Shown here one piece after another: positions 4,855-45,461 of a stretch of DNA of 57,960 nt. The position numbers were made by a program, and so were the translations under genes. The stretch lies in the IMG/VR virus record IMGVR_UViG_3300037156_000027, positions 1-57,960 of that record; one strand, given 5' to 3'. The stretch's first letter is position 1, and every line of letters begins with the position of its first letter. Source of the stretch: a virus. Taxonomy: Duplodnaviria; Caudoviricetes. The notes below the pieces were generated by a model, which had not been told where the DNA came from, ran no database searches, and worked only from the letters and a program-made list of their open reading frames with translations.

Positions 4855-6186
4855 TTACGATCTTGCAAAAGGTATGTAATCTTCTGGGTTCCCTTTGCCT
4901 CTGAACCCATTTCCTCCGGCATTCGCCTTCAACGCCGTATTAAAGCTTTTATCATTAACACTTTCGGCAAAAAAACGCCCAGTTCCGCATTGATATTTAA
5001 GAAACCATTGTTCTGGCGCATCAGGCAAATCAACCTGAATAAGGGTGCCAATATGAGGTTGGTCTTTATCGATAATCTTAGGGTGTAGGCTTGGATGTTC
5101 AAGAACATTCGCCCAGCCCAAGAGTTCGCAAGCGGCGCGACGTTGCTCAACATTTTCCCATTTTAAAGCAATTTCTGGCGTTAACGCCTTCCGGTTTTCA
5201 ATCCACCATGCTGGTATTCTAACTCCGTGGAACGAATATAGCGCCGATCCATCGCGCCATTTGCAGAATGGGCCTGTTTCGCAATGGGGACGGTTCTGAT
5301 CGTCTTTTAGCAAAAGCATAGGTCGGTCACTAATCATGCAGAATTTCTCGTGCATGATTCGTGGGCCGCTGTGTTCAGATAGTTTCTCGAAAGCATCAAA
5401 CTTTGAATAGTCCAAAGGAAGTTTTGCAACATACCGGAAGAATGTGAGAAACGCAGACCATCCAGACCACTGATTTCCGCCTTGATACATTTTCCAGTAG
5501 CATTTAACGGCACATTCTAGCCCGAACTTTCCTACACCCAAAGTTTTGGAAAGGTTGACCATGCTAGAAATATCAAGGTTAAACCAATTTTTATTTGCCG
5601 TGGCAGCATCCGTGGCAGCATACATGGCAGCACGCGTGGCATCACGCGTGGCAGCATCCGTGGCAGCACGCGTGGCAGCATGCGTGGCATCATCCGTGGC
5701 AGCATACATGGCATCACGCGTGGCAGCATACGTGGCAGCACGCGTGGCAGCACGCGTGGCAGCACGCGTGGCATCATCCGTGGCAGCACGCGTGGCAGCA
5801 TCCGTGGCAGCATCCGTGGCAGCACGCGTGGCATCATCCGTGGCAGCATCCGTGGCATCATCCGTGGCATCATCCGTGGCAGCACGCGTGGCAGCATCCG
5901 TGGCAGCACGCGTGGCATCACTTTTGCCATTTTTCCTAAAATACCATATGGCACTCGCGAAACCAGATGCAAACCGCAGAACAAACGGCGATGGCACAAA
6001 CATAATCCGGTGGTCCGGGGGTGGCTCCAAATTTGCAGAGCGATACATGGATTTTACGGCATCACGACAAATAGCTTTTTCTTCATCATCCATTGGCTTG
6101 GTGGACATGGCATTGTCAATCCATTTATCGCGCCACGATGGGAATTGCGCTTTGTGTTCTTCGGTGAGGGTGTATTTCTTAGCCAT
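4855..6186 (-). CDS. DUF6745-like protein with central tetrapeptide repeat array
   Basis: C-terminal RPHCETGP..WRDG..LY.FHGVRIP and NVEQRR motifs; central ATxA/ATxD repeats. Confidence 0.8.
   Translation of the reverse strand: MAKKYTLTEEHKAQFPSWRDKWIDNAMSTKPMDDEEKAICRDAVKSMYRSANLEPPPDHRIMFVPSPFVLRFASGFASAIWYFRKNGKSDATRAATDAATRAATDDATDDATDAATDDATRAATDAATDAATRAATDDATRAATRAATRAATYAATRDAMYAATDDATHAATRAATDAATRDATRAAMYAATDAATANKNWFNLDISSMVNLSKTLGVGKFGLECAVKCYWKMYQGGNQWSGWSAFLTFFRYVAKLPLDYSKFDAFEKLSEHSGPRIMHEKFCMISDRPMLLLKDDQNRPHCETGPFCKWRDGSALYSFHGVRIPAWWIENRKALTPEIALKWENVEQRRAACELLGWANVLEHPSLHPKIIDKDQPHIGTLIQVDLPDAPEQWFLKYQCGTGRFFAESVNDKSFNTALKANAGGNGFRGKGNPEDYIPFARS
5599..5919 (-). repeat. 12-bp coding tandem repeat, 26 full units
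   Basis: Unit GCC-A[CT]G-(CGT/GAT/TAT/CAT)-G[CA]T. Confidence 0.97.
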
Positions 6187-6550: not shown

Positions 6551-7027
6551 TTAAATGACTAACTCCACCCGGCTTCTGAAACTGGCGAAAAGTTCTTCGG
6601 CCTTGATGGTGTATGCCTTCGCTGCATCGTCTTCCGATGGAAAGAAGCCAAGACTATATTTCTTTCCATCTTTATAGATTTGTGCCTTCCATTTATTGCT
6701 CTGCTTGTCCCAGAATACGCCTTTATATTTGCTGGTTGAATTAATTTGAGACTTTTTATTCATTTGATTCTGGGCTGTCGTGACAGATCTTAAATTCAAC
6801 CGTCTATTATTAAGCGTATCTCTGTCTATATGGTCTGTTTCTATGCCATCCGGTGTCTTATTGATAAGGCGGTGCATGTAGGTGGGCGCATCTCTTTTTT
6901 TAGCGCCATTTCTTTTTCCGCTACTGAGCGCATAGCCTTTATGAAAATACCATTTGCGTTTTTGTATTAACTCAAAATCTGCGTCATCGATGACGGCGAA
7001 TTTGCTCTGTGTTAATTCTATACGCAT
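6551..7027 (-). CDS. HNH-AP2 homing endonuclease
   Basis: MHRLI...TDHIDRDTLNNRRLNLR (HNH) and SKYKGV.W..KWKAQI...LG.F..EDDAAKAY (AP2). Confidence 0.92.
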   Translation of the reverse strand: MRIELTQSKFAVIDDADFELIQKRKWYFHKGYALSSGKRNGAKKRDAPTYMHRLINKTPDGIETDHIDRDTLNNRRLNLRSVTTAQNQMNKKSQINSTSKYKGVFWDKQSNKWKAQIYKDGKKYSLGFFPSEDDAAKAYTIKAEELFASFRSRVELVI

Positions 7028-7464
7028 AGTTCTACCCTAACAACGCGGCTAGACAGGCGACAGTTGCCCTTAAGGTTCCACTCGTCGTCACCGTCCGCGA
7101 AGTCAACGTTGTACACGACGTCCGAGTTGTCGCGACGCTCCGTGCAAGACCAGTACCAGTGGGCGAGGACGGAGCCGCTAGCGGTTCTGTATGAGGCGTC
7201 CTTATTATCGTACATCTTCAGCAACAGATCCTTCGGCGGAATAAACCAGCCTCCGTTGTATGTGCCATTCTCGAACGCTGCCATAAGTTCTGCTTCGTTC
7301 TTGAAATCGCATCCGTCAAAGCCATGCCAGTTTTTCAATGACGCGACTTTCTTGACGGCGTCATTATAGGTCAACAGTTCGCCCAAATCTTCCGGTGCAG
7401 GAATAGCCTCAAGAAGTTTGACTTCTGGTTGACGAGATTCTTTGAGTTTGAATGCGTAGGTCAT
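7018..7464 (-). CDS. DUF1566/Lcl-like (C-type lectin fold) protein
   Basis: GGWFIPPKDLL, YWSCTE, YNVDFADG, C-terminal SRVVR. Confidence 0.7.
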   Translation of the reverse strand: MTYAFKLKESRQPEVKLLEAIPAPEDLGELLTYNDAVKKVASLKNWHGFDGCDFKNEAELMAAFENGTYNGGWFIPPKDLLLKMYDNKDASYRTASGSVLAHWYWSCTERRDNSDVVYNVDFADGDDEWNLKGNCRLSSRVVRVELCV

Positions 7465-7511
7465 TGGTACTCACATTTTGGGGTTAGGGATTTTTCGGCA
7501 AAACAAAACAC

Positions 7512-7561
7512 TTGATCTGCCATTACCGATACTGTATATCTATTAGCGAATTAGCTGTCAA
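7512..7561. promoter_or_regulatory. Overlapping divergent sigma70-type promoters
   Basis: Plus TTGATC-17-TATATC (7512-7540); minus TTGACA-17-TATACA (7561-7533); between divergent genes. Confidence 0.65.
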
Positions 7562-7570
7562 GGAAAGAAA

Positions 7571-8071
7571 ATGAACGCAGACAAAATAATTTCTATCTTG
7601 AAAAAAGAATGTGAAAAATCAGGCAGCCAAAAGGCGTGGGCAAAGGACAATGGTTTGTCGCAAGCCTATGTATGTGATGTTCTGCAAGGCAAACGCGGAA
7701 TAGGGGAATCAATCGCTAAAGCTCTTGGATACGAGCAGATCGTAAGTTATCGCCGATTTGGTGGTAGAAAAACTTATGGCGAAGGGAATACGGATATGAC
7801 GCCACATCGCGTCCAGCGTAAGCGTGTGAAGGGCTGGAAGATGCCTCCCAATACGGTCTATGTCGGGCGTCCTACGGCATATGGCAACCCTTTTTCTGTC
7901 GGGCGTGTGGGTGGTGCGGCAAAGGCTGTGGCTGACTACCGCGAATGGATAAAAACGAATTACGATCAGTCACAGATCGAGCAACTGCGCGGTAGAAATC
8001 TTGCTTGCTGGTGTGCGCTCGATCAACCCTGTCATGCCGATGTTTTATTGGAGGTAGCCAATGCCGAATGA
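7571..8071 (+). CDS. Cro/XRE-type HTH fused to DUF4326-like domain
   Basis: SQKAWAKDNGLSQAYVCDVLQGKR (HTH); YVGRPT.YGNPF...LRGRNLACWC...CHADVL (DUF4326); internal ATG at 7797. Confidence 0.8.
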   Translation: MNADKIISILKKECEKSGSQKAWAKDNGLSQAYVCDVLQGKRGIGESIAKALGYEQIVSYRRFGGRKTYGEGNTDMTPHRVQRKRVKGWKMPPNTVYVGRPTAYGNPFSVGRVGGAAKAVADYREWIKTNYDQSQIEQLRGRNLACWCALDQPCHADVLLEVANAE

Positions 8072-8276
8072 ATCACCAACGACTCTATTCGACATCATCA
8101 AGCGCGGCATTCTCGATCAAGATGTGCAGACTGTTGCGGATGCACTTACGGCAGTAAAGTATCTTCAGGATGCTTTCCAGAGAATAGATGCCATCTGCTC
8201 TCTTAATTCTGAGGACTACCGAGAAGGTTTCTCAGACATTGGAAATCTTGCAGGAGGCATTCTCAATGGAATATAA
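8061..8276 (+). CDS. Motif-led hypothetical protein (MPNESPTT)
   Basis: GGAGG RBS; motif CACCAACGAC. Confidence 0.75.
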   Translation: MPNESPTTLFDIIKRGILDQDVQTVADALTAVKYLQDAFQRIDAICSLNSEDYREGFSDIGNLAGGILNGI

Positions 8277-8493
8277 AATAACAATTATTCTGGCCGCGCT
8301 ATTGCTCTTATCAGGCTGCAAAGTCTGTGACCACGAGACCAATCAAGACAAGCGACATGCTTATTTTGAGGAGTGCATTAAAATTTCCGGCGCACAACCG
8401 GAACACAATCATGAAGATAATAACGGCGATCTCGTGAAGGCTTGCGATGATGCCGCCTATTATCAAGCACAGGAGAAAGTCTGCCATGAGTGA
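8266..8493 (+). CDS. Putative lipoprotein (no motif)
   Basis: GGAGG RBS; MEYKITIILAALLLLSGC lipobox. Confidence 0.7.
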   Translation: MEYKITIILAALLLLSGCKVCDHETNQDKRHAYFEECIKISGAQPEHNHEDNNGDLVKACDDAAYYQAQEKVCHE

Positions 8494-8791
8494 ATCTAAA
8501 ACGACGCCATGGCAGTTGATTGAGACTGCTCCACATAACAAGAAAATAATCGTCTACTATAAAAACGGGTGTGACAAGGGAAGAACCGTTTTCGCTGTGT
8601 ATATTGATAAGTTCACCGAGGAAGATACCGGCGAGTGCGACATGGATACGGACTACAGCGAAGAAAAAGATTGTTACTATTGGCCGGAAGGTTGGTACGA
8701 GCAGATAGACAATTGGGATGACTACTCAGCCGTTCGATTTCACTATAAACCAACTCATTGGATGGAGTGCCCGGAATGTCCCAAACGGTAA
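8486..8791 (+). CDS. Motif-led DUF551-like protein (MSESKTT)
   Basis: WQLIETAP...PTHWMECP; AGGAG RBS. Confidence 0.75.
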   Translation: MSESKTTPWQLIETAPHNKKIIVYYKNGCDKGRTVFAVYIDKFTEEDTGECDMDTDYSEEKDCYYWPEGWYEQIDNWDDYSAVRFHYKPTHWMECPECPKR

Positions 8792-8967
8792 CGACACCCA
8801 CATGGGAAATTCTAGCCAGAGCAGACGCCCCAATAAGGCTATCCGAGGCAGCATCTACCGCGCAGAAGGTTTTCAATCTGAACCGGACATCTGACCGCGC
8901 CGCAGAGATAGCATTCAAGACGCTAGAGCAAGCGCAGAAACTTTTAGTGGAGGCGGAGAATGGATAA
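8776..8967 (+). CDS. Motif-led hypothetical protein (MSQTVTT)
   Basis: GGAG RBS; motif CGGTAACGAC. Confidence 0.7.
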   Translation: MSQTVTTPTWEILARADAPIRLSEAASTAQKVFNLNRTSDRAAEIAFKTLEQAQKLLVEAENG

Positions 8968-9142
8968 ATCACCAACGACGCCGGAAGACTGCGGTGCGCA
9001 TTTGTTTCACCCTATAACGCAGTTTTGTAGGAACTGCGGAATGGCAAGAACAGGGGCTTTAGAAAATTATCTGGCTTTCATGCAAAGATATACAGACAGA
9101 CTTCAACGCCTTGAAGCTAAAGTATTCGGAGAAGCACCATGA
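8960..9142 (+). CDS. Motif-led protein with Cys/His cluster (MDKSPTT)
   Basis: CxxH...CxxC; motif present. Confidence 0.7.
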   Translation: MDKSPTTPEDCGAHLFHPITQFCRNCGMARTGALENYLAFMQRYTDRLQRLEAKVFGEAP

Positions 9143-9161
9143 CTGAAACGACGAGCAAGCC

Positions 9162-9398
9162 ATGAGAGCAACGGTTTTTACGGAGGATGAAGCCAAAGAA
9201 CGCGCCTGTTGCGGTTCTGGCAATCGTCCTGCCAATAACGGCCCCTGCATAGGCTCGAAGTGCATGGCTTGGGAATGGGTGATCGAGGCAGCTATGCCTG
9301 AAGGCGAGAAGAATGTTTACGACATAACGCCGCGAAACATGATTAAACCTATCAAGGTCGAACGTGGTTATTGCGGATTAAGCAAAGGAGATAATTAA
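9162..9398 (+). CDS. Cys-containing hypothetical protein, preceded by 8-codon motif mini-ORF 9139..9165
   Basis: CIGSKCMAW...GYCGL; ATGA coupling. Confidence 0.7.
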   Translation: MRATVFTEDEAKERACCGSGNRPANNGPCIGSKCMAWEWVIEAAMPEGEKNVYDITPRNMIKPIKVERGYCGLSKGDN

Positions 9399-9742
9399 TG
9401 GATAAAGATTCAGTAACCACTCTTGAGGAAGAGAATTTGGACTTGCTAAAGATGGTTGATGCATTCGGGAATTTTGTTCGTGCTTATGCCGATGGAGCAG
9501 ATCGGCTGCTAAGTGAGCACACAAAAATCATGCAAAAAATAGCGGAGATGGGGGAAGCGAGAAACTTGCTGATCGATAATCCACAAACGACGCCCGACCT
9601 GATTAAAGCGATCCGCACAGAACTTTATGACATCGGCTATGGCTCTCCTATGCGTGGGGATTATCAAATTGGCTTCAATGATGCTCTGCAAAGAATGGAT
9701 TGGGTTTTAGAACGTATGGAGAAACAAAATGAAACAGCCTGA
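9398..9742 (+). CDS. Motif-led protein with a second internal in-frame motif (MDKDSVTT...IDNPQTT)
   Basis: Motifs at 9411 and 9582. Confidence 0.75.
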   Translation: MDKDSVTTLEEENLDLLKMVDAFGNFVRAYADGADRLLSEHTKIMQKIAEMGEARNLLIDNPQTTPDLIKAIRTELYDIGYGSPMRGDYQIGFNDALQRMDWVLERMEKQNETA

Positions 9743-9923
9743 ATCCCAAACGACGAAACGCATTTCCTATTCACTTTTTGCGGCACTTCTTATTCCGCTT
9801 CTGGCATGGTGTGCTGGATATGACTTTGACAAGCGCGGAGCGGTTGCGTGTTTCATCTGCGTCTATTCAATCCTCCTATTCCTTTTTGTCTGGTTTGCAC
9901 CTTGGTGGAAATATGACCGATAA
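9729..9923 (+). CDS. Motif-led two-TM membrane protein (MKQPESQTT)
   Basis: Two hydrophobic helices. Confidence 0.7.
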   Translation: MKQPESQTTKRISYSLFAALLIPLLAWCAGYDFDKRGAVACFICVYSILLFLFVWFAPWWKYDR

Positions 9924-10053
9924 TCCTCAAACCACAATCATCCAACGCCTCCTGACGTTTCTATTCCCGTACAAGCGTCCGTCTATCATCGGACATATCC
10001 TTGTCCGCAATGGTTCGGTTACGGGATGTCCGGGGAGTGCGCTTAGATCATGA
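9913..10053 (+). CDS. Motif-led small protein (MTDNPQTT)
   Basis: GGTGG RBS; overlaps upstream stop. Confidence 0.6.
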   Translation: MTDNPQTTIIQRLLTFLFPYKRPSIIGHILVRNGSVTGCPGSALRS

Positions 10054-10247
10054 CATTCCGCGCATCACGCCATTGTTCGCCAAGCAAATTCATGTCGCCA
10101 AAAGGAATGCCGCAACGCAAGTCCGAGCTACTCGCATTGCATGCTGAGGGGAAGACGACATCGGAAGCAGCAGAGTTGCTGGGGATGTCTCTTAGCGCGG
10201 TTCGGCAAGCATGCGTTACTTATGGGGTTAAGTTGCGGAGGGGGTAG
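10050..10247 (+). CDS. HTH DNA-binding protein
   Basis: GKTTSEAAELLGMSLSAVRQ. Confidence 0.7.
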   Translation: MTFRASRHCSPSKFMSPKGMPQRKSELLALHAEGKTTSEAAELLGMSLSAVRQACVTYGVKLRRG

Positions 10248-10253
10248 GTGGTT

Positions 10254-10499
10254 TTAGATTCTTGCGGCATTGGCTGCATCCTTTCCCTCGACTGCTAGAA
10301 CATAAGTTCTATATGCCTCAACAACGCGAATGGCTTTATATTTGTCATCCATCAAGCAGCGGCATCCTGCATTCGTGTGCATTCCTATCGGGGTCTGAAT
10401 GCGACAGCCGCCATTTGAACAACCACCAATCTCTTTCAGGCGATTTTGGAGTGCTTGGAGTGGTTCAGATAAAGTCGTTACTGATTCATTCTTCGGCAT
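10254..10499 (-). CDS. Motif-led Cys-rich protein (MPKNESVTT)
   Basis: GGCSNGGC...GMHTNAGCRC. Confidence 0.75.
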   Translation of the reverse strand: MPKNESVTTLSEPLQALQNRLKEIGGCSNGGCRIQTPIGMHTNAGCRCLMDDKYKAIRVVEAYRTYVLAVEGKDAANAARI

Positions 10500-10734
10500 G
10501 GGGAACCTCCGGTAATGGATGCCAATGAGAGATCGGATAAATGTCTTTGTAATCAGTTCCCCAATCTCCCTGATTTTCGATCACACGCGAACCGTCGCAC
10601 ACAGGAACAAAACTACCCCCACGATATTCGGCTGTGCTGATCTCTGTATAGCGCGACCAAACCAAAATGGTTGTGCCGTCCTTTGGCGCAGTCTCAATGT
10701 CCCGCCAGAGAGTCGTTACTGATTGTTCGGCCAT
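10486..10734 (-). CDS. Motif-led DUF551-like protein (MAEQSVTT)
   Basis: WRDIETAPKDGTTILVW...SHWHPLPEVP. Confidence 0.8.
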   Translation of the reverse strand: MAEQSVTTLWRDIETAPKDGTTILVWSRYTEISTAEYRGGSFVPVCDGSRVIENQGDWGTDYKDIYPISHWHPLPEVPHAEE

Positions 10735-10883
10735 AATGCCTCCGATGCTATTTGGTGAGCTGTTTTACCGCTGCGAAAACACTTGCGGCCTTCCCGATCT
10801 CCAATTTCGACTATCTGCCCCAAGGCTTCGTATAGCCTTTGGTGGTCTAAACGGAGACGTTCACATTCTTCATTTCTTTCCAT
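10716..10883 (-). CDS. Hypothetical protein (no motif at start)
   Basis: AAGGAG RBS before ATG 10883 (MERNEEC...). Confidence 0.55.
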   Translation of the reverse strand: MERNEECERLRLDHQRLYEALGQIVEIGDREGRKCFRSGKTAHQIASEALWPNNQ

Positions 10884-11013
10884 AACGGCTCCTTGAATAA
10901 TATATCGGACGACATTCAATGCAGAGAGGCGGCCCTGAGTCTTTGCCGCATTCAACACACCGATGGGCTGAATTGTTGTTTGCGGGCTTCGTGGTTGTCG
11001 GTTGGTCAACCAT
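10870..11013 (-). CDS. Motif-led zinc-finger miniprotein (47 aa, not in ORF track; MVDQPTTT)
   Basis: CVECG...LCIEC. Confidence 0.65.
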   Translation of the reverse strand: MVDQPTTTKPANNNSAHRCVECGKDSGPPLCIECRPIYYSRSRYGKK

Positions 11014-11173
11014 TCGTTGCACCTTTCAGAGCCAATTCTGCGGCGCTATAAGCTGCGCTCCAACGCTTGCCGATCTGCCCGGAACAAGAATGCGATTTCC
11101 CTGATAAGCGGTATTCTGGAACTATCGCGTCCGCGATCTCGCAAGGTGTTTTCGTCGTTTTAGATTCAGTCAT
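11006..11173 (-). CDS. Motif-led hypothetical protein (55 aa, not in ORF track; MTESKTT)
   Basis: Overlap-coupled at both ends. Confidence 0.7.
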   Translation of the reverse strand: MTESKTTKTPCEIADAIVPEYRLSGKSHSCSGQIGKRWSAAYSAAELALKGATNG

Positions 11174-11348
11174 AGGGCTGCACCCCCTTAAAAATTGCGT
11201 TGTATGATCTGCCGCCAGCGTCGATGTAGTCTTTGGGTTTTTTCCATTGCTTCTTTTTGCGGCTAATGACTTTCTTGTCGTTTTGATCTGTATAGCTGTC
11301 CGTCTTTGCGGCGCATAAGCGACCCTTTAAATTCGTGGTTTTAGTCAT
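11166..11348 (-). CDS. Motif-led basic protein (MTKTT)
   Basis: AGGAGG RBS. Confidence 0.7.
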   Translation of the reverse strand: MTKTTNLKGRLCAAKTDSYTDQNDKKVISRKKKQWKKPKDYIDAGGRSYNAIFKGVQPYD

Positions 11349-11514
11349 GCAGCTTTCCTCCTAAATAGCACCAAGCGTTGAGCAGAACATTCTGCGGAAT
11401 TTTGGTGTCGAAATACATGCCCATGATAAGAGCCTCGCGCACTTCGTCTTGCGTCATTAACTTGCGCTGCAAGACGCGCTCTTTTATCGTTAATTCCGTC
11501 GTTTGTGTTGTCAT
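11341..11514 (-). CDS. Motif-led hypothetical protein (MTTQTT)
   Basis: GGAG RBS; ATGA coupling. Confidence 0.7.
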   Translation of the reverse strand: MTTQTTELTIKERVLQRKLMTQDEVREALIMGMYFDTKIPQNVLLNAWCYLGGKLHD

Positions 11515-11738
11515 GTGTGTCTCCAATGCACGGGATGTTCAGGATTTTTCAAATGCTCTTTAAGGCCGCTCGCCAAATTACCAGCGACCGCACGAATGCC
11601 GCCCAAACAACCAGCCGATAATTCTGGGTGATCTTTCAAAAGCACGTCGGCATCCTCGATGATGTCTTCGGCTAGACCAATGTAGCCTTGCAACCATTCA
11701 AGGTTGATCGTTTTCGTCGTTACTGTTTTGTCGGTCAT
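11511..11738 (-). CDS. Motif-led hypothetical protein (MTDKTVTT)
   Basis: ATGA coupling. Confidence 0.7.
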   Translation of the reverse strand: MTDKTVTTKTINLEWLQGYIGLAEDIIEDADVLLKDHPELSAGCLGGIRAVAGNLASGLKEHLKNPEHPVHWRHT

Positions 11739-11965
11739 CCTGTTTTCTCCGGTAAATCGGTTGGCATCCAATGGGTGATTGCGTGATCGAAGAAGGCCGA
11801 CCAATGCTGCCACACATCGCCATCCCAATAAGCGAGAGATGCTTCTTGTTTGCGCCCCTTTATTGTTGAGGTGACAACATAGGTTCCGTTCTTTGGTGGC
11901 GGTACAAGCTGCCATGCAACCGGGGTATTTACCTCCTGTAGAGTGGTTGCTGATTTATCAATCAT
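11735..11965 (-). CDS. Motif-led DUF551-like protein (MIDKSATT)
   Basis: WQLVPPPKNG...ITHWMPTDLP. Confidence 0.75.
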   Translation of the reverse strand: MIDKSATTLQEVNTPVAWQLVPPPKNGTYVVTSTIKGRKQEASLAYWDGDVWQHWSAFFDHAITHWMPTDLPEKTG

Positions 11966-12143
11966 GGGCGTTCTCCTCACAGTAACGAGCCATATCCTCT
12001 GCTAATCCTAAACGGCATTCATACGGCATGTCGTGAACGATCTTTGAGAACGAGGCCGGGGTATCTGGCGAAAGGTTAGCAAACAAAATTGCCTTACATC
12101 TCAATTCGCTGAATTTGAGAGTCGTTTGTGGATTATCGGTCAT
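11958..12143 (-). CDS. Motif-led hypothetical protein (MTDNPQTT)
   Basis: Overlap-coupled. Confidence 0.7.
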   Translation of the reverse strand: MTDNPQTTLKFSELRCKAILFANLSPDTPASFSKIVHDMPYECRLGLAEDMARYCEENAHD

Positions 12144-12483
12144 CGTCTGTCGTCCCTTCTTCAATGTGTCGCAACACTTCAGGAATTGAGCCTTCGGATA
12201 CGTTCATCTCCTGCAAATGAGCAATAATGCAGTTTTGCAGTCGTTCGATTTTCAGGCTCATATCGTTCATTTTATGGGCTGCCTTAAGTGCTGAAAGGAT
12301 TATGGGTATTTGCTTGTATCCTGTCCCACATACCAATAACTCAGCGTAAGTAGATTTAGCGAGTACGCTCAGAGCTTTTTCTGTCGTTTGTGTCGGAGAT
12401 GCTGCGCCGCACTTTGTGCAGATAACGCCATTGTTGGCATATCCGCATTGGCCGCACAGCCATTCTTTGGTGGTTTGTGTCAT
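12133..12483 (-). CDS. Motif-led protein with N-terminal RanBP2-like zinc ribbon bracketed by two motifs
   Basis: MTQTTKEWLCGQCGYANNGVICTKCGAASPTQTT. Confidence 0.75.
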   Translation of the reverse strand: MTQTTKEWLCGQCGYANNGVICTKCGAASPTQTTEKALSVLAKSTYAELLVCGTGYKQIPIILSALKAAHKMNDMSLKIERLQNCIIAHLQEMNVSEGSIPEVLRHIEEGTTDDDR

Positions 12484-12755
12484 TTTGTTATCACTCCCTT
12501 CGCCCATTCATCCAATTTGCTTTCGAGAGCCTGAATTGTAGCCCACTTTCCCGACGGAAAAAGATCGTCGTTGTCGGGCATCTGCCGCATGAGGAAAAAC
12601 ATTTTTGCCCAATCTTCGAGCGGCATATTATCGGCATCAGCAAGATCATACGTTCTAACAATCTCTTCGATGCCGCGCCGAGTTAACGGAATGAATTCGC
12701 GTAGGCTAATAAAGTCGCGGCGATAGGTGGTCGTTGGTGATTCAGGCTTGGACAT
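12480..12755 (-). CDS. Motif-led hypothetical protein (MSKPESPTT)
   Basis: GGAGG RBS. Confidence 0.75.
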   Translation of the reverse strand: MSKPESPTTTYRRDFISLREFIPLTRRGIEEIVRTYDLADADNMPLEDWAKMFFLMRQMPDNDDLFPSGKWATIQALESKLDEWAKGVITK

Positions 12756-12924
12756 TTTTCAGCCTCCAAAAGTCTATGAACTTGTCTGTCATCTCCCGCG
12801 CCTTTTCCTCGCCGAACAACCCAACGTAGTAGAAATAGGCGTTCACGCGCAGGATGCTTTCCTCGAATGGTCTATCCATTCTGGGCTTCGGAAAGCAGAT
12901 GACATTTGTCGTTTCAGTTGTCAT
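12742..12924 (-). CDS. Motif-led hypothetical protein (MTTETT)
   Basis: GGAGG RBS; ATGA coupling. Confidence 0.7.
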   Translation of the reverse strand: MTTETTNVICFPKPRMDRPFEESILRVNAYFYYVGLFGEEKAREMTDKFIDFWRLKNVQA

Positions 12925-13172
12925 AAATTGCCCTCCATATATTCCTTGTCGTGAACGATAGCGTTCGATGCAATGGCCTCGACGCCGTACCAATTGGTCA
13001 TGTCCCAAAGAGCGTCACAAACATTTTTAAGGGATTGTTTCTTTGCAGGATCGGTTTCCTTATCACATAGATGATTGAGTTCGTAGTGAGCATGGCGAAT
13101 ATCGCCTTGATCCAGCACCTTGACCATTACAGTCAACCTTTCAGTTTCGTAGGTGGTTTTTGAATCAGTCAT
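12921..13172 (-). CDS. Motif-led hypothetical protein (MTDSKTT)
   Basis: Overlap-coupled. Confidence 0.75.
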   Translation of the reverse strand: MTDSKTTYETERLTVMVKVLDQGDIRHAHYELNHLCDKETDPAKKQSLKNVCDALWDMTNWYGVEAIASNAIVHDKEYMEGNL

Positions 13173-13356
13173 TTGGAATAAATCCTTTCAAGTTATTGTC
13201 GATCCTGTACTTGGCGTGTTTTACGGATAGCCTCATTATCTTTTCTTCTCTGTCTGTGAAATTGCTGGTGTCCAAGTCTCCACAAACATCGTCGTGAACC
13301 CAAATTTGCAGTTCTGCCAAAATTTCATCTGGCGTGGTTATTGGTTTATCCTGCAT
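13165..13356 (-). CDS. Motif-led hypothetical protein (MQDKPITT)
   Basis: Overlap-coupled. Confidence 0.7.
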   Translation of the reverse strand: MQDKPITTPDEILAELQIWVHDDVCGDLDTSNFTDREEKIMRLSVKHAKYRIDNNLKGFIPND

Positions 13357-13552
13357 TTAGTTTCCTTTCTTCCTCATCCGCAAACTTCTTTGCCTGTTCG
13401 ATAATGCCGAGCCACATAATCCTGCGATAGTCTGCATCCTTGAAAACATACTCAATCTCTCCCTTCACGGGAGCGAGAAGGTTTATCGCCCTATCGCGGA
13501 TTAGCATCGCTATCTGACCGGGCGATTTCGTGGTTTGTGAATCTTTAGTCAT
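13346..13552 (-). CDS. Motif-led hypothetical protein (MTKDSQTT)
   Basis: Overlap-coupled. Confidence 0.7.
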   Translation of the reverse strand: MTKDSQTTKSPGQIAMLIRDRAINLLAPVKGEIEYVFKDADYRRIMWLGIIEQAKKFADEEERKLNAG

Positions 13553-13754
13553 CGAAAGCCATCCTTCCTACGCATAAGGATGCCCATGCCATTTGTTGTC
13601 TTGTGCATTCAAAGTGTGCCGTCTCACAAGCACCGTCATCGTGAAATGTCATTATGATGACGTTCTTAACGGTTGGATCAGCCATTGCCTGAGAGAGCAA
13701 AGACGAAACGGATTTGTGTTTACCTCCAAGGGCGACAACTTTGCTTTCATTCAT
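13545..13754 (-). CDS. Hypothetical protein (MNESKVV; motif absent)
   Basis: ATGA coupling. Confidence 0.7.
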   Translation of the reverse strand: MNESKVVALGGKHKSVSSLLSQAMADPTVKNVIIMTFHDDGACETAHFECTRQQMAWASLCVGRMAFDD

Positions 13755-13951
13755 AAGATGCCCCTTTCTATCGCCAGTTTCTCAGACATCATAATTTGGT
13801 CAGGCTCTCCAAACCCAATCTTCACAATCTTAAATTCAGAGCGGTCAAACCATGCGCGTCCAATATCAGCTTCGATCAGAGCCTTATTAGGAGCATCGTC
13901 TATTATTTTACAATTAAGCAACAAGTCCGTGGTTTGTGGATTAGTATTCAA
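13751..13951 (-). CDS. Motif-led hypothetical protein, TTG start (MNTNPQTT)
   Basis: GAGGTG RBS before TTG at 13951. Confidence 0.65.
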   Translation of the reverse strand: MNTNPQTTDLLLNCKIIDDAPNKALIEADIGRAWFDRSEFKIVKIGFGEPDQIMMSEKLAIERGIL

Positions 13952-14186
13952 GACACACCTCAAATTGTTTGCTGCATTTAGGGCACAACACTTCAACATT
14001 TTTTGTCCTATCGGTGTTATGCTCGGCAAGATCAAATCTATGGTCTTCCCAGAAGTCATCGGCATCCAAAAGGTCCACATATGCTTCACAGTGCGGACAT
14101 TCACACCAAAGCTCTATCGTCCAAGATGCAAATACTCTTTCAGCCTCCTTAGGCGTCTCTTCGGTCGTGGTTACTGATTCAGCCAT
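13941..14186 (-). CDS. Motif-led zinc-binding protein (MAESVTT)
   Basis: CPHC...CPKC. Confidence 0.75.
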   Translation of the reverse strand: MAESVTTTEETPKEAERVFASWTIELWCECPHCEAYVDLLDADDFWEDHRFDLAEHNTDRTKNVEVLCPKCSKQFEVCLEY

Positions 14187-14446
14187 ATCACCACCCCCAA
14201 CAACCCAAATATAAACTCCGCGCACAGGATGAATCCGATGCCAGATAGGAAGCCGGATTCTCGGCCCTCGGTGTATCCTTTCTCATGTCCGTGCTTGTGT
14301 CCCAATATATACCCATCATCATGAGCATATTGACGGACTTTAACGTGGTGCTTGTGTAACTCAGCTAAAGCCTTCGCCTGATCCTCGTCGCTCACGTACC
14401 CATCGGGGACTTTGCAGAACGCGCCCTTATGTCTGGCCTTGCTCAT
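14171..14446 (-). CDS. Hypothetical protein with GxxxG repeats and C-terminal TM
   Basis: GYILGHKHGHEKGYTEG; hydrophobic tail. Confidence 0.65.
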   Translation of the reverse strand: MSKARHKGAFCKVPDGYVSDEDQAKALAELHKHHVKVRQYAHDDGYILGHKHGHEKGYTEGRESGFLSGIGFILCAEFIFGLLGVVIWLNQ

Positions 14447-14634
14447 GGCTGTATCTCCGTTTTAAGATTATCCATCATGTTGTGCAGTAGGTCAGACATG
14501 GAGTGGCACAGGCTGGCTTTGTCTTTATATGACAGAGGCGAGGCAATGAATGTGATTAGCTTGTCAAGAGCCGTCACATTTGATGAATGCACCAACCCAA
14601 CGAGTTCCGGCTGGATGAGCTTGTGGACGTTCAT
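14443..14634 (-). CDS. Hypothetical protein
   Basis: Coupled ORF. Confidence 0.55.
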   Translation of the reverse strand: MNVHKLIQPELVGLVHSSNVTALDKLITFIASPLSYKDKASLCHSMSDLLHNMMDNLKTEIQP

Positions 14635-14719
14635 CTAAACACCATAAGCAGCATAGAGGCCCAGAACGCGAGACATGCGGCAAGCATAAGTAGCCAGTCG
14701 AATAGGTTTAATGGCATGG

Positions 14720-14962
14720 TTAATCACTCCCGTATTGTTTATATTCCTGTACCGCAGCCAGCATGTAAGCCGCGTTCCGTTCTTCCTGCGATTCATAACC
14801 GCCAGATACCTCATGATTTTCCAGCATCTCATAGGCGGCTTTGAGTTGCTCGATCTCGGCATCGGTTCCGGACTCCTTTGCCAAGCAGATAGCAATTTTT
14901 AGTGCTTGTTGAATTTGGGGAACTTCATCGTAGCGGGTTAGGTTGATGGTGTAGGGGATCAT
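14720..14962 (-). CDS. Hypothetical protein
   Basis: ATGA-coupled to HTH gene. Confidence 0.6.
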   Translation of the reverse strand: MIPYTINLTRYDEVPQIQQALKIAICLAKESGTDAEIEQLKAAYEMLENHEVSGGYESQEERNAAYMLAAVQEYKQYGSD

Positions 14963-15141
14963 CTGAACCTCGGATATTTAAGGGTTGATAGAGCAAGCAG
15001 AATAGGTTCCTTGACTGGCGTTTTTCCTGACACCCAATTCCTGACCGTCCTATCTGTGACGTTCAAAAACTGCGCCATTGGCGTTTGCCAGTTCTTGCCC
15101 CAGATTCGAAGGCCTTCTTTTTTTAGCTGTGCGATGGGCAT
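14959..15141 (-). CDS. HTH (XRE/Cro-like) protein
   Basis: WQTPMAQFLNVTDRTVRNWVSG. Confidence 0.8.
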   Translation of the reverse strand: MPIAQLKKEGLRIWGKNWQTPMAQFLNVTDRTVRNWVSGKTPVKEPILLALSTLKYPRFR

Positions 15142-15217
15142 TTAATCTCCGTTGTTGGTAAAAGTATCCTAGGAAAGTTTTTCTATGATGTCTATAGAAT
15201 ATTGAATAATTTTATTG

Positions 15218-15400
15218 CTATCTTGCCTCTGCCAATTTCATGCGAGACCGCCGATTAGCCGCCCTCCATTGCTTGCTCGTGTTGTCGTCTTTCCGCGCAT
15301 CGTAACAAGGCCAGCATATCCAGTATTGCTTAACCTCAGTTTTCACTTTGACCTCATATGGAGTCTTGGGTTTTTTACAGTCTGGACATACGTATTTCAT
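15218..15400 (-). CDS. Zinc-finger protein
   Basis: CPDC...CWPC. Confidence 0.6.
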   Translation of the reverse strand: MKYVCPDCKKPKTPYEVKVKTEVKQYWICWPCYDARKDDNTSKQWRAANRRSRMKLAEAR

Positions 15401-15843
15401 CTCGTCACCGGAAACCGAACCTTCTCAAAACAAGCCGTGTGATGCCCATCGCAGTATTGGCTCCCAGACTTCACTGAGGCTCCGCAGCAACGCATCTGGC
15501 GAACCTCACCGATAATATACCCGCAAAGCCCAAACGCCGGAGGCCACGGAATGGGCTTTCCCGACGGCACTCCCTGAGCTTCAGCCACGCGCTCCCTGCT
15601 CTTGGCGACAACAGCCTTAATCTTAACCTTGCGGTTATTCGCAGCTTCCACAGATGCCTTCTTGCGGTTCACACGGCTATGCGGGTGTGGCTGGGACGCG
15701 AAACCTTGCATGGGTATCTTGAGCCTATGCAGCTTGCCGATAACCGCGTTCTTTGTCTTGCCGACGATCTCAGCTATCTGCGCGGTGGTGTGCGTTGATG
15801 CGAGAGTTTGGATTTGGAGGATTTTGGCGGGTGTCCATGTCAT
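15397..15843 (-). CDS. gcrA: GcrA cell-cycle regulator homologue
   Basis: MTWT...TAQIAEIVGKTKNAVIGKLHRL N-terminus; C.YIIGE...CCGA...YCDGH C-terminus. Confidence 0.88.
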   Translation of the reverse strand: MTWTPAKILQIQTLASTHTTAQIAEIVGKTKNAVIGKLHRLKIPMQGFASQPHPHSRVNRKKASVEAANNRKVKIKAVVAKSRERVAEAQGVPSGKPIPWPPAFGLCGYIIGEVRQMRCCGASVKSGSQYCDGHHTACFEKVRFPVTR

Positions 15844-17291: not shown

Positions 17292-17603
17292 TTATTCCAT
17301 CCCTAAAGATGACATGTATAAACTCAGCAACTCCTCATTCTCGCGCCGTTTCTCAAGTTCCGTTTTTCTGAGCTTGATAACTTGGCGAATGATCTTGTTG
17401 TCGAATCCGACGCCTTTGCTCTCCTCATACACAGATTTTATATCTTGGGCGACTGCGGCTTTATCGGATTCGAGCCGTTCAATTCTTTGCACGAAAGACC
17501 GTAACCGTTCGCCGGAGATGCCGCCTGAATTATCGCCAACCCCGCGCAAATGTTCCGCGCCCTTTTTGATGATCTCGCCTTCTTCTCTTGAGAATGCTGG
17601 CAT
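17292..17603 (-). CDS. gapR: GapR/DUF2312 (UPF0335) DNA-binding protein
   Basis: LRSFVQRIERLE..K.AVAQDIKSVY.ESKGVGFDNKIIRQVIKLRK...LY...LGM. Confidence 0.9.
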   Translation of the reverse strand: MPAFSREEGEIIKKGAEHLRGVGDNSGGISGERLRSFVQRIERLESDKAAVAQDIKSVYEESKGVGFDNKIIRQVIKLRKTELEKRRENEELLSLYMSSLGME

Positions 17604-17946: not shown

Positions 17947-18573
17947 TCATACTGCTGGCGCGTCATCTTCTGCATCAGAACATCCTTCTGTTGGAGATTC
18001 GGCAGATTTATGACCGTCAGCTATTCCCGCAATCTCTTTTAGTTCAGCGAGATTAAGCTGCTTCTGTTGCGCAGGAGTTAGCTTGCCCCAATAGGTTTTT
18101 AGCGGCTCGGTGCCTTTTGCGGCTTCCAGTTTGGCGGCTTCGATCAAGGCTGTGCTGGGGGTGTGAACGACAACCAAAGTCAGCGGCTTCACAGTAAATA
18201 TCTTGCGAACGGTTTTTGATTCCGTGAGAGATAATTTCTTCTCGCCGTCTATATGCGACATATGAGAGATTCGGATGCCCCCTACCTTCTTGCCCCCGAA
18301 TATCACATCCTCATCGCCGTACAGCGTCAGGCTCTTGCCAACATAGTTTACGGAGGCCAGACCCCACAATCTCGCCAGAACCCTAGACATAGTTTTGCAT
18401 GGCTTCCAAGGCTTACCGTTATCGCCCTCAAAAAAGATAGATACCTTCTGCTGAGGATCATTATTCTTGATGACAACCTTGGTAATCGTAATGGTTTTCG
18501 ATATTCCACAGGCGATGTCATCATAATTCAACTGGTCTGACTTCGGCTCTATTGCTACGGACATATCGTTCAT
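17947..18573 (-). CDS. Probable ssDNA-binding/annealing protein paired with exonuclease
   Basis: PKSDQLNYDD...KPWKPCKTM...V.FGGKKVGGIRISHMSHID; acidic C-terminal tail; adjacent to YqaJ gene. Confidence 0.6.
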   Translation of the reverse strand: MNDMSVAIEPKSDQLNYDDIACGISKTITITKVVIKNNDPQQKVSIFFEGDNGKPWKPCKTMSRVLARLWGLASVNYVGKSLTLYGDEDVIFGGKKVGGIRISHMSHIDGEKKLSLTESKTVRKIFTVKPLTLVVVHTPSTALIEAAKLEAAKGTEPLKTYWGKLTPAQQKQLNLAELKEIAGIADGHKSAESPTEGCSDAEDDAPAV

Positions 18574-19247
18574 ATTATGTCTCCTTCAATCCTGCGTTCG
18601 GTTGGATGTAGTCGCAAGGTTTTGTCTGCGATTCGTTGCCGATAAATCTCAAAGTTCTCGGCAAGTTTTTTCTCAAATATCGTTGCCGCCGCGACTATCG
18701 CATCTTGCACAACGGGGTCAGGCAACACGCGCAACGTCAACATAGGCAAACCACCGGAATATGAGATAAAGTCCCACCATTTCCGCTCAGACACTAATAG
18801 GCATGTCTGAACCTGAATAACAAAGTCATCCGGCATCTTCTGTTCGACGATAGTTTGCACCTGAAATTTTTGTGCGCGTGATTTCACCTCAAGACCACCA
18901 GCCTCTGCGATTAGGGAGTCTGGCGAACATCCGAGTGTGAACCCGAATTTATCGTTCGTTATGAACCCAACATCCTGAAGCGGTGCGTATTTCTCATTGT
19001 AGATGATTTTGGCTTCCAATTCGTCATCATGACCGCGCAACATCGCATCGCTGACATATTGCGGCTCTACATATTTAGAAATACGCTGCGATAGCAACTC
19101 CCACATATGGCTGCGCGATTTGTCATTATCGGCGACTTTCAGGGTTGGGGTGATGATTAGCTTCATTTGGGAAGCTGTCAACAATCCGGCTCTGGCAGTA
19201 ATCCACGCATCACTGCCCTGATCAAAATTCTCATGATAGGTTATCAT
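18570..19247 (-). CDS. YqaJ/lambda-type exonuclease
   Basis: QGSDAW..ARAGLLTAS, GCSPDSL, LEVKS, QVQ..L.VSERKWWDFISY. Confidence 0.92.
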   Translation of the reverse strand: MITYHENFDQGSDAWITARAGLLTASQMKLIITPTLKVADNDKSRSHMWELLSQRISKYVEPQYVSDAMLRGHDDELEAKIIYNEKYAPLQDVGFITNDKFGFTLGCSPDSLIAEAGGLEVKSRAQKFQVQTIVEQKMPDDFVIQVQTCLLVSERKWWDFISYSGGLPMLTLRVLPDPVVQDAIVAAATIFEKKLAENFEIYRQRIADKTLRLHPTERRIEGDII

Positions 19248-20301: not shown

Positions 20302-20587
20302 TTTTCAACCTCTTGATTTTCATTTTGATATTTTGCTCAATTATCTCAGCGTCAATACACGCCGCCTTCACCTGATTGCAGTCCGAATGACATAGACGGA
20401 GATTCCAATCATCGTCAGAACCGCCAAGCGAAACCGGATAAACATGATCTATGGTAATCCTGTCGTCCTTGTAAGCATTCTCATCAAGATACTCGCCGCA
20501 CAGGTAGCATTTATCGCCGTCACGGACGCGCAACCATTCCTTTAGATAAACCTGCTCATCGAAAGGCATTAGTCTACGGTTTGCCAT
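20285..20587 (-). CDS. HNH endonuclease
   Basis: RDGDKCYLCG...TIDHVYPVSLGG....NLRLCHSDCNQVK. Confidence 0.92.
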   Translation of the reverse strand: MANRRLMPFDEQVYLKEWLRVRDGDKCYLCGEYLDENAYKDDRITIDHVYPVSLGGSDDDWNLRLCHSDCNQVKAACIDAEIIEQNIKMKIKRLKNATET

Positions 20588-20882
20588 GTAGCTTCTCCCA
20601 TTTCCTTTGCTCGGCGATTAGCTCTTTGCCCTTGCTGTTAATCCGTTTCCAAAAGTCTTTTTCGGCGGACTCGTATTCAAGTGTGAGCAAAAGCATGAAT
20701 ACATAAAATAATTTCTTGTCGAGCCACCAGCTTTCGACCTGCATATGTTCGAGCGGGTAGTAAATATCGGCTAGATTCCGCTGAACCGACAGCATAGCAA
20801 CGATTCGAAGCTCATCGGACAATCGTTCATCGATCAACATCATGCGGCGGACTTCTTCGGAAGCGCGAAAATCAACGGTCAT
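20574..20882 (-). CDS. Hypothetical protein
   Basis: Coupled ORF. Confidence 0.65.
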   Translation of the reverse strand: MTVDFRASEEVRRMMLIDERLSDELRIVAMLSVQRNLADIYYPLEHMQVESWWLDKKLFYVFMLLLTLEYESAEKDFWKRINSKGKELIAEQRKWEKLHGKP

Positions 20883-23410: not shown

Positions 23411-23583
23411 TTTTCTTCCATCAATCTTTCTTGATGCTCCATATATCGCCTCTCGGCACAATTCTCGCACAGATATTCAGGCGGAACGCTGAACGGTGCC
23501 ATTGTGGTTATGTCGTACACGTCTGGCGTGGTTGCGCCGCAGTTTTCGCATTCGCGGGGTTTATCGTTTGCCATATCTGTCAT
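23407..23583 (-). CDS. Zinc-finger miniprotein (58 aa, not in ORF track)
   Basis: CENCG...LCENC; ATGA overlaps at both ends. Confidence 0.65.
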   Translation of the reverse strand: MTDMANDKPRECENCGATTPDVYDITTMAPFSVPPEYLCENCAERRYMEHQERLMEEK

Positions 23584-23753
23584 GGCAATTCCTTCAATTT
23601 ATCGAAGTGATAAAGCGGCGTGAATTTCTGATCGTTGTATTCTGCGTCATGTCCTGTTTCATATATTATCAGACCAGCGGTATCCTTTCCGACAATCCAT
23701 ACTTTCTTGCCGTTCACCAATGCCCAACGTGGCGTGGTTTCAGTTTGTGCCAT
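23580..23753 (-). CDS. Motif-led protein (57 aa, not in ORF track; MAQTETT)
   Basis: AAGGAG RBS; motif CTGAAACCAC. Confidence 0.7.
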   Translation of the reverse strand: MAQTETTPRWALVNGKKVWIVGKDTAGLIIYETGHDAEYNDQKFTPLYHFDKLKELP

Positions 23754-23913
23754 GCTTTAGCTCCTTAGATATTTCCTGATTACGGTTCTGCAATTCTTCG
23801 CAGGACATTACACTTGTAAATGGCGTCTTCCATCGGCCACAATTCACACAGCTAAGTTGCGTCCCATTGGCTCTAGTTATGCGCCATACGTGAGTGGTTG
23901 GTGATTCAGTCAT
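23740..23913 (-). CDS. Motif-led protein (MTESPTT)
   Basis: GGAGGT RBS; motif CACCAACCAC; CVNCG. Confidence 0.7.
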   Translation of the reverse strand: MTESPTTHVWRITRANGTQLSCVNCGRWKTPFTSVMSCEELQNRNQEISKELKHGTN

Positions 23914-35597: not shown

Positions 35598-35912
35598 ATG
35601 ATAATGGAGATAAAGTGATTAATTTTCCAGCCAGATGGCCTGCACCGAATGATGGACTTCAGATCAACATCGTACATGATGTTGAACAGAAGAAAGTAGG
35701 CATTGTTGTATCTGGATTTTCCAGCGTTGAGGCTGCGATTAAATTCCTAGAGGATGATTAATTAGAGGTTGACTTCCTTTTATTTTTGTGTTCTTATGCG
35801 AAACATGCCCCGATAGTGGGGCTATGGATAGAGTGCCCAAAGGCATTCGTTTTAACTCCAAAATGCTTGCGATACAGCAGGAATTTCGTCCAACTCAATT
35901 GGAGAATTCCCT

Positions 35913-45186: not shown

Positions 45187-45461
45187 GCCTTCTCAAAACA
45201 TTCCTTGGAATACTGATCGCGGAGGATGAGGCGGCAAATGTTGCGCTTGGTTCAGTTGATGGCGTTTCTGCAGCAGCAAATCCGCATTATACCCTTTCTC
45301 AGCGATGGGCTTTCGAGCGCCAAAAAGGTAACAAGCAAGCCTGCGTTATATGTAAACTGCTAACTATTATCTTTAAACCATTTAATCCAAGTATTAAAAA
45401 TTATGACCATTGCTCACAAGCTATTTCTGGATTTTCAGATAACTTGCCGACGGATGGTTAA
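45183..45461 (+). CDS. Hypothetical phage protein
   Basis: AEDEAANV...TLSQR...CVICKLL...HC. Confidence 0.65.
   Translation: MSLLKTFLGILIAEDEAANVALGSVDGVSAAANPHYTLSQRWAFERQKGNKQACVICKLLTIIFKPFNPSIKNYDHCSQAISGFSDNLPTDG

Follow-up and report, generated by a model that had tools for sequence, protein, structure and literature searches.

What is a ribosome site, a start codon and a handful of codons doing at the end of a phage operon when no gene follows them? The question is raised by positions 10220-10270 of the window, by which we mean the whole 57,960-bp stretch of DNA that was analysed, a complete phage genome with direct terminal repeats. The window has a GC content of 50.2%, and a scan of it found no tRNA genes. 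The late genes (terminase, portal and others) lie on the plus strand from ~26 kb. A long early operon on the minus strand extends from ~25.6 kb to 10,254 and codes for two primase-type proteins, an HNH nuclease, a VRR-NUC-like nuclease, a YqaJ-type exonuclease and GapR- and GcrA-like proteins, followed by many small genes. A shorter plus-strand operon, 7,571-10,247, converges with it exactly at the gene start in question, which we refer to as the body-less leader. The GcrA and GapR families are typical of alphaproteobacteria and their phages, and the homologues in the window thus suggest that the host is probably an alphaproteobacterium. The left operon also encodes a protein with HNH_3 and AP2 domains, the usual make-up of a free-standing homing endonuclease.

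15397-15843, minus strand: GcrA-like protein
17292-17603, minus strand: GapR-like protein
6551-7027, minus strand: HNH_3 and AP2 domain protein of the left operon

A leader without a gene body between two convergent operons

The elements of the junction and its flanks are as follows.

10220-10270, minus strand: body-less leader, 16 codons plus stop (ATG 10270-10268, stop 10222-10220)
10253-10248, minus strand: terminal core AACCAC, which makes up the entire 6-nt gap between two convergent stops
10254-10499, minus strand: last gene of the minus cassette array, 81 aa, leader MPKNESVTT, stop at 10254-10256
10050-10247, plus strand: convergent small helix-turn-helix (HTH) gene, a 65-aa ORF whose TAG abuts the terminal core; its true start may be a later ATG
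10111-10141, minus strand: terminator-like hairpin with a 12-pair stem, ~80 nt beyond the stop of the body-less frame and antisense within the HTH gene

The original prediction described a coupled start, a frame of 16 codons and a motif at 10257-10248, and all three are read directly and exactly from the sequence. On the minus strand, from 10270 to 10220, the frame is ATG CCG CAA GAA TCT AAA ACC ACC TAC CCC CTC CGC AAC TTA ACC CCA TAA, preceded by an AAAGGA ribosome site and encoding MPQESKTTYPLRNLTP. Its ATG lies 14 nt before the stop of the 81-aa gene and overlaps the last codons of that gene in another frame, and it is this overlap that makes the start "coupled", as it does for most leaders of the array. 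The motif was also said to sit flush against the TAG (10245-10247) of the plus-strand HTH gene, and this is confirmed from the sequence: bases 10247-10245, directly after the terminal core, are the complement of the TAG that ends ORF 10050-10247, and codons 9-16 of the body-less frame run antisense to the end of the HTH gene. ORF 10050-10247 scores above the Pfam cut-off for Sigma70_r4_2 (27.1 vs 25.7 bits) and for HTH_23. The hairpin at 10111-10141 is a possible end of the minus-strand transcript; overall, the scan was no richer in terminator-like sites than shuffles.

The same junction, with 0 differences, is present in X1, an independent Logan assembly of the probable source run and probably of the same sample. 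This second assembly speaks against an assembly artefact, as do the repeats themselves, which at 6-20 nt are too short for chimeric assembly.

The leader motif recurs at early-gene starts and is constrained at the nucleotide level

The body-less leader is one of a family. About 28 small early genes of the window open with a ribosome site, an ATG, 3-7 codons and an in-frame xxA-AC[C/G]-ACN, the motif lying 7-22 nt downstream of the ATG. Copies of the core, AAC[C/G]AC, number 25 on the plus strand and 49 on the minus strand of the window. Those preceded, within a few codons and in frame, by a start fall into two clusters, 8078-9930 on the plus strand and 14172-10253 on the minus strand, with two more on the minus strand at 23899 and 23739. 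The motif occurs in 18 of the 20 minus-array starts and 9 of the 12 plus-array starts, and is absent from late-gene starts in a motif scan of the window.

10254-14225, minus strand: minus-strand array, 20 gene starts including the body-less one, 18 with the motif; those at 13754 and 10885 are without it
8061-10053, plus strand: plus-strand array, cores at 8078, 8500, 8790, 8974, 9147, 9415, 9586, 9749 and 9930
8078-8083, plus strand: first plus-strand core, whose leader gtagccaATGCCGAATGAATCACC resembles the body-less leader gcagccaATGCCGCAAGAATCTAAA
9139-9165, plus strand: second leader without its own body, an 8-codon frame MTETTSKP
23583-23913, minus strand: two motif-led genes, leaders MTESPTT and MAQTETT, upstream of the primase/helicase gene

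Cores with an in-frame ATG 2-7 codons upstream occur 30 times in the window, against a mean of 4.7 and a maximum of 12 in 200 Markov resamples, which excludes chance. The corresponding count in G001, a second phage that is described below, is 19, against a mean of 5.2 and a maximum of 11. Alignment of the 30 window leaders on the core, a set that includes one doubtful copy in the primase gene and two TTG starts, gave the consensus [A/G]A[A/T] nC[A/T] nnA AC[C/G] ACn; the base before the core is A in 30/30 leaders and the base five upstream is C in 29/30. Among the 27 array starts with Thr-Thr near the N-terminus, every one reads xxA-AC[C/G]-ACN (24 directly, and 3 that have two Thr-Thr pairs via the leader alignment). 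Across 20 long ORFs of the window, by comparison, ACC and ACG account for only 60% of Thr codons, and codons ending in A for only 19% of codons. This single codon form, set against the genome-wide usage, indicates that the constraint on the leader acts on nucleotides rather than on the peptide.

Several array genes depart from the simple layout. The gene at 13545-13754 on the minus strand starts MNESKVV (ATGAATGAAAGCAAAGTTGTC), which is leader-like with GTTGTC where ACSACN is expected; this start may be a decayed junction. On the plus strand, the 114-aa ORF 9398-9742 looks like two cassettes read through: the core at 9586-9591 has a leader that opens at TTG 9566 (LLIDNPQTT), in frame and without a stop before it, and a contig of the peat run X2, described below, begins there. 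DUF551-like paralogues are found in the arrays at 8486-8791 (plus), 10486-10734 (minus) and 11735-11980 (minus), each with a different leader; the Pfam match to DUF551 was shown for 10486-10734. The 8-codon frame MTETTSKP has an ATG that overlaps the stop of the preceding gene (ATGA) and a TGA that overlaps the ATG of a motif-less 78-aa gene (9162-9398), and the third lineage described below repeats the arrangement, at 5504-5575 of its contig L149.

These placements bear on an alternative, namely that the motif is mainly a translation-start or operator signal and that the body-less copy acts as RNA, either as an antisense tail of the HTH mRNA that pairs with all leaders or as a small frame that holds ribosomes at the end of the operon. 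In favour of this, the place and orientation of the motif at early-gene starts are constant, as they are for the start-associated sequences (SAS) of Cluster K mycobacteriophages (PMC3203893), leader mini-frames are ATGA-coupled to motif-less genes (9139-9165; L149 5504-5575), and no plus-strand terminator lies between the HTH stop and the leader. However, the late genes, presumably highly expressed, are without the motif, and a signal for expression leaves unexplained why homology breaks at the core, as set out below, though the two roles could coexist. As the main account of the locus we regard an expression element as improbable, while an added role of the motif in translation start is possible. 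Pairing of the motif with 16S rRNA (the "downstream box" idea) and a primase recognition site were considered as well and set aside, since both depend on the identity of the host. In the region 7300-15500 there was no excess of promoter-like sites (7 vs 11.1 in shuffles) or terminator-like sites (7 vs 8.4).

A two-gene block shared with an unrelated phage ends at two cores

A search of viral contigs with the leader pattern returned 56 loci, of which only one was real. It belongs to G001, a complete phage of 51,174 bp. Outside one shared block, the window and G001 have only 9 protein families in common, at 27-61% identity. At the DNA level there are four matches, one of them above 80% identity: window 8074-8506 against G001 50159-49727, 95.15% over 433 bp. 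An exact 45-mer from this block was found in G001 only.

8074-8506, plus strand: two-gene block in common with G001, starting 4 nt before core 8078-8083 and ending 1 nt after core 8500-8505

The flanks of the block are unrelated, with identity running from 4 nt before core 8078 to 1 nt after core 8500. The leaders upstream of it differ (ATGCCGAATGAATCACC vs ATGACAACACA) and the gene bodies downstream are unrelated.

G001 has its own array on the minus strand, 14 leaders with the core from 50166 to 46267, and here too the array closes with a body-less leader. The TAA of the last gene (92 aa) falls within the motif, and an overlapping ATG opens the 11-codon frame MPEPVTTYTCP. The array end reads ATGCCTGAACCAGTAACAAC, and the core-like sequence there is AACAAC (46268-46263) rather than AAC[C/G]AC; directly beyond it stands CTA, which on the other strand is the TAG of a convergent gene. 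That gene encodes a 141-aa protein with an OmpR-type winged helix (Trans_reg_C, 34.6 bits); the convergent regulators of the window and G001 are not homologous. On the plus strand, G001 has a core at 44800-44805, in frame in ORF 44642-45172 and inverted relative to the terminal core.

A single-gene cassette is present or absent at a terminal core

The first gene of the block led to a third lineage, C, which consists of the metagenome contigs L147, L148 and L149; a second leader pattern run against viral contigs gave 19 loci, of which only lineage C was real. Comparison over 8,969 bp found no difference between L149 and the IMG/VR record G002 (58,733 bp). Lineage C has one array with 10 leaders and few proteins in common with the window or G001. 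It also has a DUF551-like gene (MTETTNWKPIETYDG), and L149 carries tandem repeats with a period of ~27 nt at 461-941 (BLAST self-offsets of 27 and 54 nt) whose copy number differs between L147 and L149. A protein of ~100-130 aa without a known family is apparently common to all three motif-bearing phages, besides the shared cassette protein (20574-20882, minus, in the window; 35446-35838, minus, in G001; 45206-45529, plus, in G002). Its members are 27-30% identical and are linked via G001, those of the window and lineage C having no mutual match; it adjoins the VRR-NUC-like nuclease in the window and in lineage C.

Two matches of 5,661 and 4,151 bp, each at 100% identity, link L149 to L148, and the 6-nt core is precisely where they overlap. 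The additional DNA in L148 is 278 bp between two cores and consists of a 95-aa gene and the next leader, placed at the terminal, body-less core. In L149 the terminal site reads ATG ACT CAA ACG ACT ATC TAG; in L148, after the extra gene, it reads ATG GAA CAA ACA GTA ACG ACT ATC TAG. The original prediction proposed to look in relatives for gene bodies inserted exactly at the terminal motif, and this is what lineage C contains, L148 being L149 plus a 278-bp cassette with flanks that are 100% identical. Relatives of the L148 cassette protein were found in four other viral contigs, which are high in GC, and 4/4 of them start without a leader. The leader is therefore a property of the array system rather than of the protein family.

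Two further events are seen in L147. Its 99.9% match to L149 stops with the last base of a core, past which the two contigs are unrelated; after 214 bp and a new leader, L147 7300-7415 matches L149 5351-5466 again, starting with the first base of a core. The same gene body is therefore found twice in L147, at 5351 and 7300, behind two leaders (MNDRKTVTT and the GTG-start MSKDSQTT), and the contig ends 116 nt later. The doubled body could be a duplication made at the core. Patchy homology that reaches beyond the core also links some leader modules: window 9102-9154 and L149 6842-6891 are 85% identical over 53 nt, a match that ends 2 nt past the core.

With three lineages in hand, the terminal frames can be compared. 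They are MPQESKTTYPLRNLTP in the window (16 codons), MPEPVTTYTCP in G001 (11) and MTQTTI or MEQTVTTI in lineage C (6 or 8), and they share the leader only. A conserved gene for the 16-residue peptide, which would have spoken against a junction, was thus not what the relatives revealed. The window frame does have a ribosome site and an ATG; nevertheless, with frames that agree in nothing but the leader, we consider a real peptide gene, together with chance and an assembly artefact, very improbable as an explanation of the locus.

The comparison also bears on whether the site is the remnant of a one-off deletion, a single event that took a gene body up to the convergent gene and left a site without a continuing role. 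Gene packing is tight to the base: the convergent stops are 6 nt apart. Moreover, a lineage C gene (L149 core 6226, MTTKTTYPTEK...) has a body that opens with exactly the 7 nt found past the terminal core (CTACCCC, Thr-Thr-Tyr-Pro); the same 7 nt, however, are part of the last codons of the HTH gene, which makes the identity ambiguous. The architecture recurs in G001 and the body-less terminal leader in lineage C; independent identical scars are unlikely, and L148 and L149 show a terminal core in active use. A one-off deletion is therefore an unlikely account.

Further breakpoints at cores in a peat metagenome

X2 is a peat metagenome run from another study, in which short, low-depth contigs match patches of the window, aligned at 85% likeness. 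In one contig, whose shorter side is 98 nt, position 9926 of one strand is linked to 11506 of the other, so that the leader of the plus-strand 9930 gene sits in frame on the body of the minus-strand 11503 gene; this join between inverted cores rests on one contig at a depth of 2.6. A second contig turns unlike the window after 9757, 3 nt past a core. A third, 186 nt long, is like the window only over 10995-11169, a stretch that begins at a leader and stops at the core after it; 11 unlike bases flank it on either side, and upstream it reads another leader start. All five breakpoints (9926, 11506, 9757, 10995 and 11169) are ≤10 nt from a core. Breakpoints outside the arrays, at 5915, 6573/7045, 14713, 19193 and 23190, are not at cores. 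Taken together with the breakpoints between the window and G001 and among L147, L148 and L149, the X2 contigs support the earlier proposal that the motif is a DNA junction.

At 10248-10253 itself, no variant of the window phage was found in X1, from the probable source sample, and the contigs of X2 do not cover 9927-10729, which makes them uninformative here. We attribute this to the two flanking genes, which are both without detectable homologues: searches of viral contigs, metagenome contigs and 5.8 billion proteins returned no relatives of the 81-aa gene beyond itself, and the HTH gene had no homologues in viral contigs or in a protein word search. The insertion of gene bodies at a terminal motif thus holds for lineage C, and none was seen at the window's own site.

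The X2 join between inverted cores draws attention to the geometry of the window, where cores 8078-8083 (plus) and 10253-10248 (minus) form an inverted pair around 8084-10247. The terminal core could be the idle partner in an invertible array. A flip of 8084-10247 would hook the plus array to the minus operon and fuse the body-less leader in frame to a 71-aa gene body, leaving the other leader empty. The leaders of the two cores are alike and their shared codon phase makes the flip in frame; G001 has an inverted pair too, and in both phages a DNA-binding gene ends the bracketed segment. On the other hand, no contig of X1 shows 8084-10247 flipped (contigs drop rare variants), no invertase-type recombinase was found among the 39 window ORFs scanned, and lineage C has no clear inverted partner. 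We give inversion a low probability, much like that of a one-off deletion.

Other sources yielded no additional carriers. The window had no DNA-level match in a phage database, its primase/helicase had no match in viral contigs, and the second leader pattern hit 67 loci in bacterial genomes, none with an array, so that no host or prophage was found. Among 80 loci around relatives of the exonuclease there were no leader arrays, and 7-mer counts gave no further shared leader; the phages with the best exonuclease matches, Acetobacter phage phiAX1 and Synechococcus phage Ssp-JY42, have no arrays.

A probable array of single-gene cassettes exchanged core to core

We conclude that the 16-codon frame is not a gene but, probably, the far end of an array of single-gene cassettes that are exchanged core to core. 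In these phages the stretch exchanged extends from core to core, and it comprises one gene body together with the ribosome site and ATG of the gene that follows and that gene's first 3-7 codons. The final base of the core falls on the second position of a Thr codon in all leaders; with all cores in this single phase, every join of core to core keeps the frame. Since each cassette carries the start of the gene that follows, the last one ends in a leader and core with nothing behind, and in the window this empty leader leads directly into the TAG of the convergent regulator. The comparisons show cassettes gained or lost at a terminal core, swapped between cores and fused across inverted cores, and the last gene can be exchanged by two crossovers only if a core follows it. 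The core may then stay constant because intact cores keep cassettes exchangeable between co-infecting phages. The same cassette logic explains the ATGA-coupled mini-frames and the read-through ORF 9398-9742.

On this cassette reading, 10248-10253 would be the site for adding a further cassette, or the site where one was lost. The locus had been described as an empty acceptor or a rearrangement scar; the junction on which both ideas rest is upheld, while an acceptor and a scar of loss are indistinguishable here, as are gain by L148 and loss by L149, and the two are in effect the two sides of one site. Against the cassette reading it counts that all comparators are metagenome assemblies. It also does not predict that in all three lineages the opposite strand has a TAG at the outer edge of the terminal core, which in the window and G001 is the stop of the DNA-binding gene. 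Furthermore, it could be a role in expression that keeps the core constant, and recombination would then be a by-product only.

How the joins are made can be approached from the breakpoints and from the gene content. The crossover may fall on either side of the variable C/G of the core: the right end of the window/G001 block differs there, and so does L147 7300 from L149 5351. Such scatter, read from the aligned sequences, is better accounted for by short-homology annealing or template switching than by a cut at one set position, although staggered site-specific exchange is also possible. The L148/L149 event involved no more than 6 identical bases, a short stretch for ordinary homologous recombination. 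The joins may thus be made by short-homology recombination or template switching, perhaps aided by the exonuclease module of the phage.

18570-19247, minus strand: YqaJ/lambda-exonuclease-type nuclease, 54% identical in G001
17947-18573, minus strand: neighbour of the exonuclease with an OB-fold-like model, 47% identical in G001

No recombination-type function other than the exonuclease and its neighbour was recognised in the window, and neither of the two is present in lineage C. The model of 17947-18573 has a mean pLDDT of 77.8 and weak OB-fold matches in the PDB (best E 0.03). We did not adopt an annealing protein as its identity, the PDB matches being weak and the sequence search having given nothing. 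In the 39 window ORFs scanned, a set outside which most late genes lie, there were no recombinase, transposase or HUH families. A search for attC-like inverted repeats in 7900-14400 gave 4 inverted pairs, only one of them near a leader.

Relation to known systems of modular exchange

The idea of boundary sequences is reportedly due to Susskind and Botstein. In the modular theory of phage evolution, short conserved boundary ("linker") sequences are placed at the borders of phage modules, and exchange is directed to them (Cresawn et al. 2011, PMC3233612). The core resembles such linkers in two respects. The same short sequence stands at module borders in otherwise unrelated phages (the window, G001 and lineage C), and the breakpoints coincide with it (the block ends, the ends of the L148 cassette, and the L147/L149 break and rejoin). 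Unlike linkers, however, it lies inside the reading frame, 3-7 codons past the ATG, in a single codon phase and with an invariant part of 6 nt; the products are in-frame fusions that take their first residues from the upstream neighbour, and the arrays end in a body-less copy.

The PeSLs (promoter-early stem-loops) of T4-type phages, on which Comeau et al. are said to have written as well in 2014, offer a second comparison. These small repeats flank non-essential ORFs, and when the repeats recombine with one another, insertions, deletions and replacements result (Arbiol et al. 2010, PMC2839356). The arrays likewise have repeated small elements in variable regions with exchange between copies. 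PeSLs are intergenic cassettes, each with a sigma-70-type promoter and a terminator stem-loop, whereas the motif here is coding, sits where coding sequences overlap, and comes with no excess of promoter-like or terminator-like sites. The SAS of Cluster K mycobacteriophages is a 13-bp asymmetric repeat that stands, always in the same orientation, where non-structural genes from many different families start, and has an unknown function (Pope et al. 2011, PMC3203893). Its sequence is GGGATAGGAGCCC, and it lies 3-7 bp upstream of the start codon and overlaps the ribosome site, while the motif is downstream of the ATG and has another sequence; the passages that define SAS claim no role for it as an exchange point (PMC3203893). 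Relaxed homologous recombination by phage recombinases makes mosaics between diverged phages and leaves traces at fragment borders (De Paepe et al. 2014, PMC3945230). Measured against that description, the homology in the arrays is as short as 6 nt, and no Rad52-like annealing protein was identified in the window phage.

The arrays can also be set beside two systems that depend on dedicated enzymes. Integrons are arrays of single-gene cassettes, each with a recombination site (attC repeats), that have a site for adding cassettes and an IntI tyrosine recombinase. The likeness lies in the single-gene cassette array and the site where cassettes are added. In contrast to integrons, no integrase was found in the 39 ORFs scanned, the junctions have no attC-like hairpins and lie inside an ORF, and the empty site of the window is at the far end of the operon, not beside the promoter. 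As in Hin/Gin or shufflon segments, an inverted repeat pair brackets 8084-10247. A bolder extension would make the 6-nt core the target of a dedicated recombination or replication-switch machinery, the arrays a phage counterpart of integrons that moves genes as in-frame fusions, and the terminal leader by the DNA-binding gene a docking or inversion site that feeds the array; we put this forward tentatively and as rather doubtful.

A search of the full-text literature, with most subscription journals and supplements outside its scope, found no prior description of an in-frame intragenic junction with empty terminal copies. The comparisons support the interpretation that the array is a case of modular exchange mediated by boundary sequences, in a form that appears to have no counterpart among linkers, PeSLs, SAS or relaxed recombination, as far as the cited descriptions extend.

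Implications for phage mosaicism

The long-standing debate on phage mosaicism, with its breaks at gene borders, opposes targeted recombination at short shared sequences to random joining followed by selection (PMC3233612). The peat phages are an unusually clean case for the targeted view: one pair has a two-gene block and another a single-gene cassette that differ exactly at the core, and in L148 and L149 the difference lies between otherwise identical genomes. The first few residues of ~50 proteins in the three phages would then be a generic adaptor and not part of the protein proper, which matters for annotation and for expression. If a specific enzyme makes the joins, the arrays would represent a new gene-capture system and a possible tool for the in-frame assembly of cassettes.
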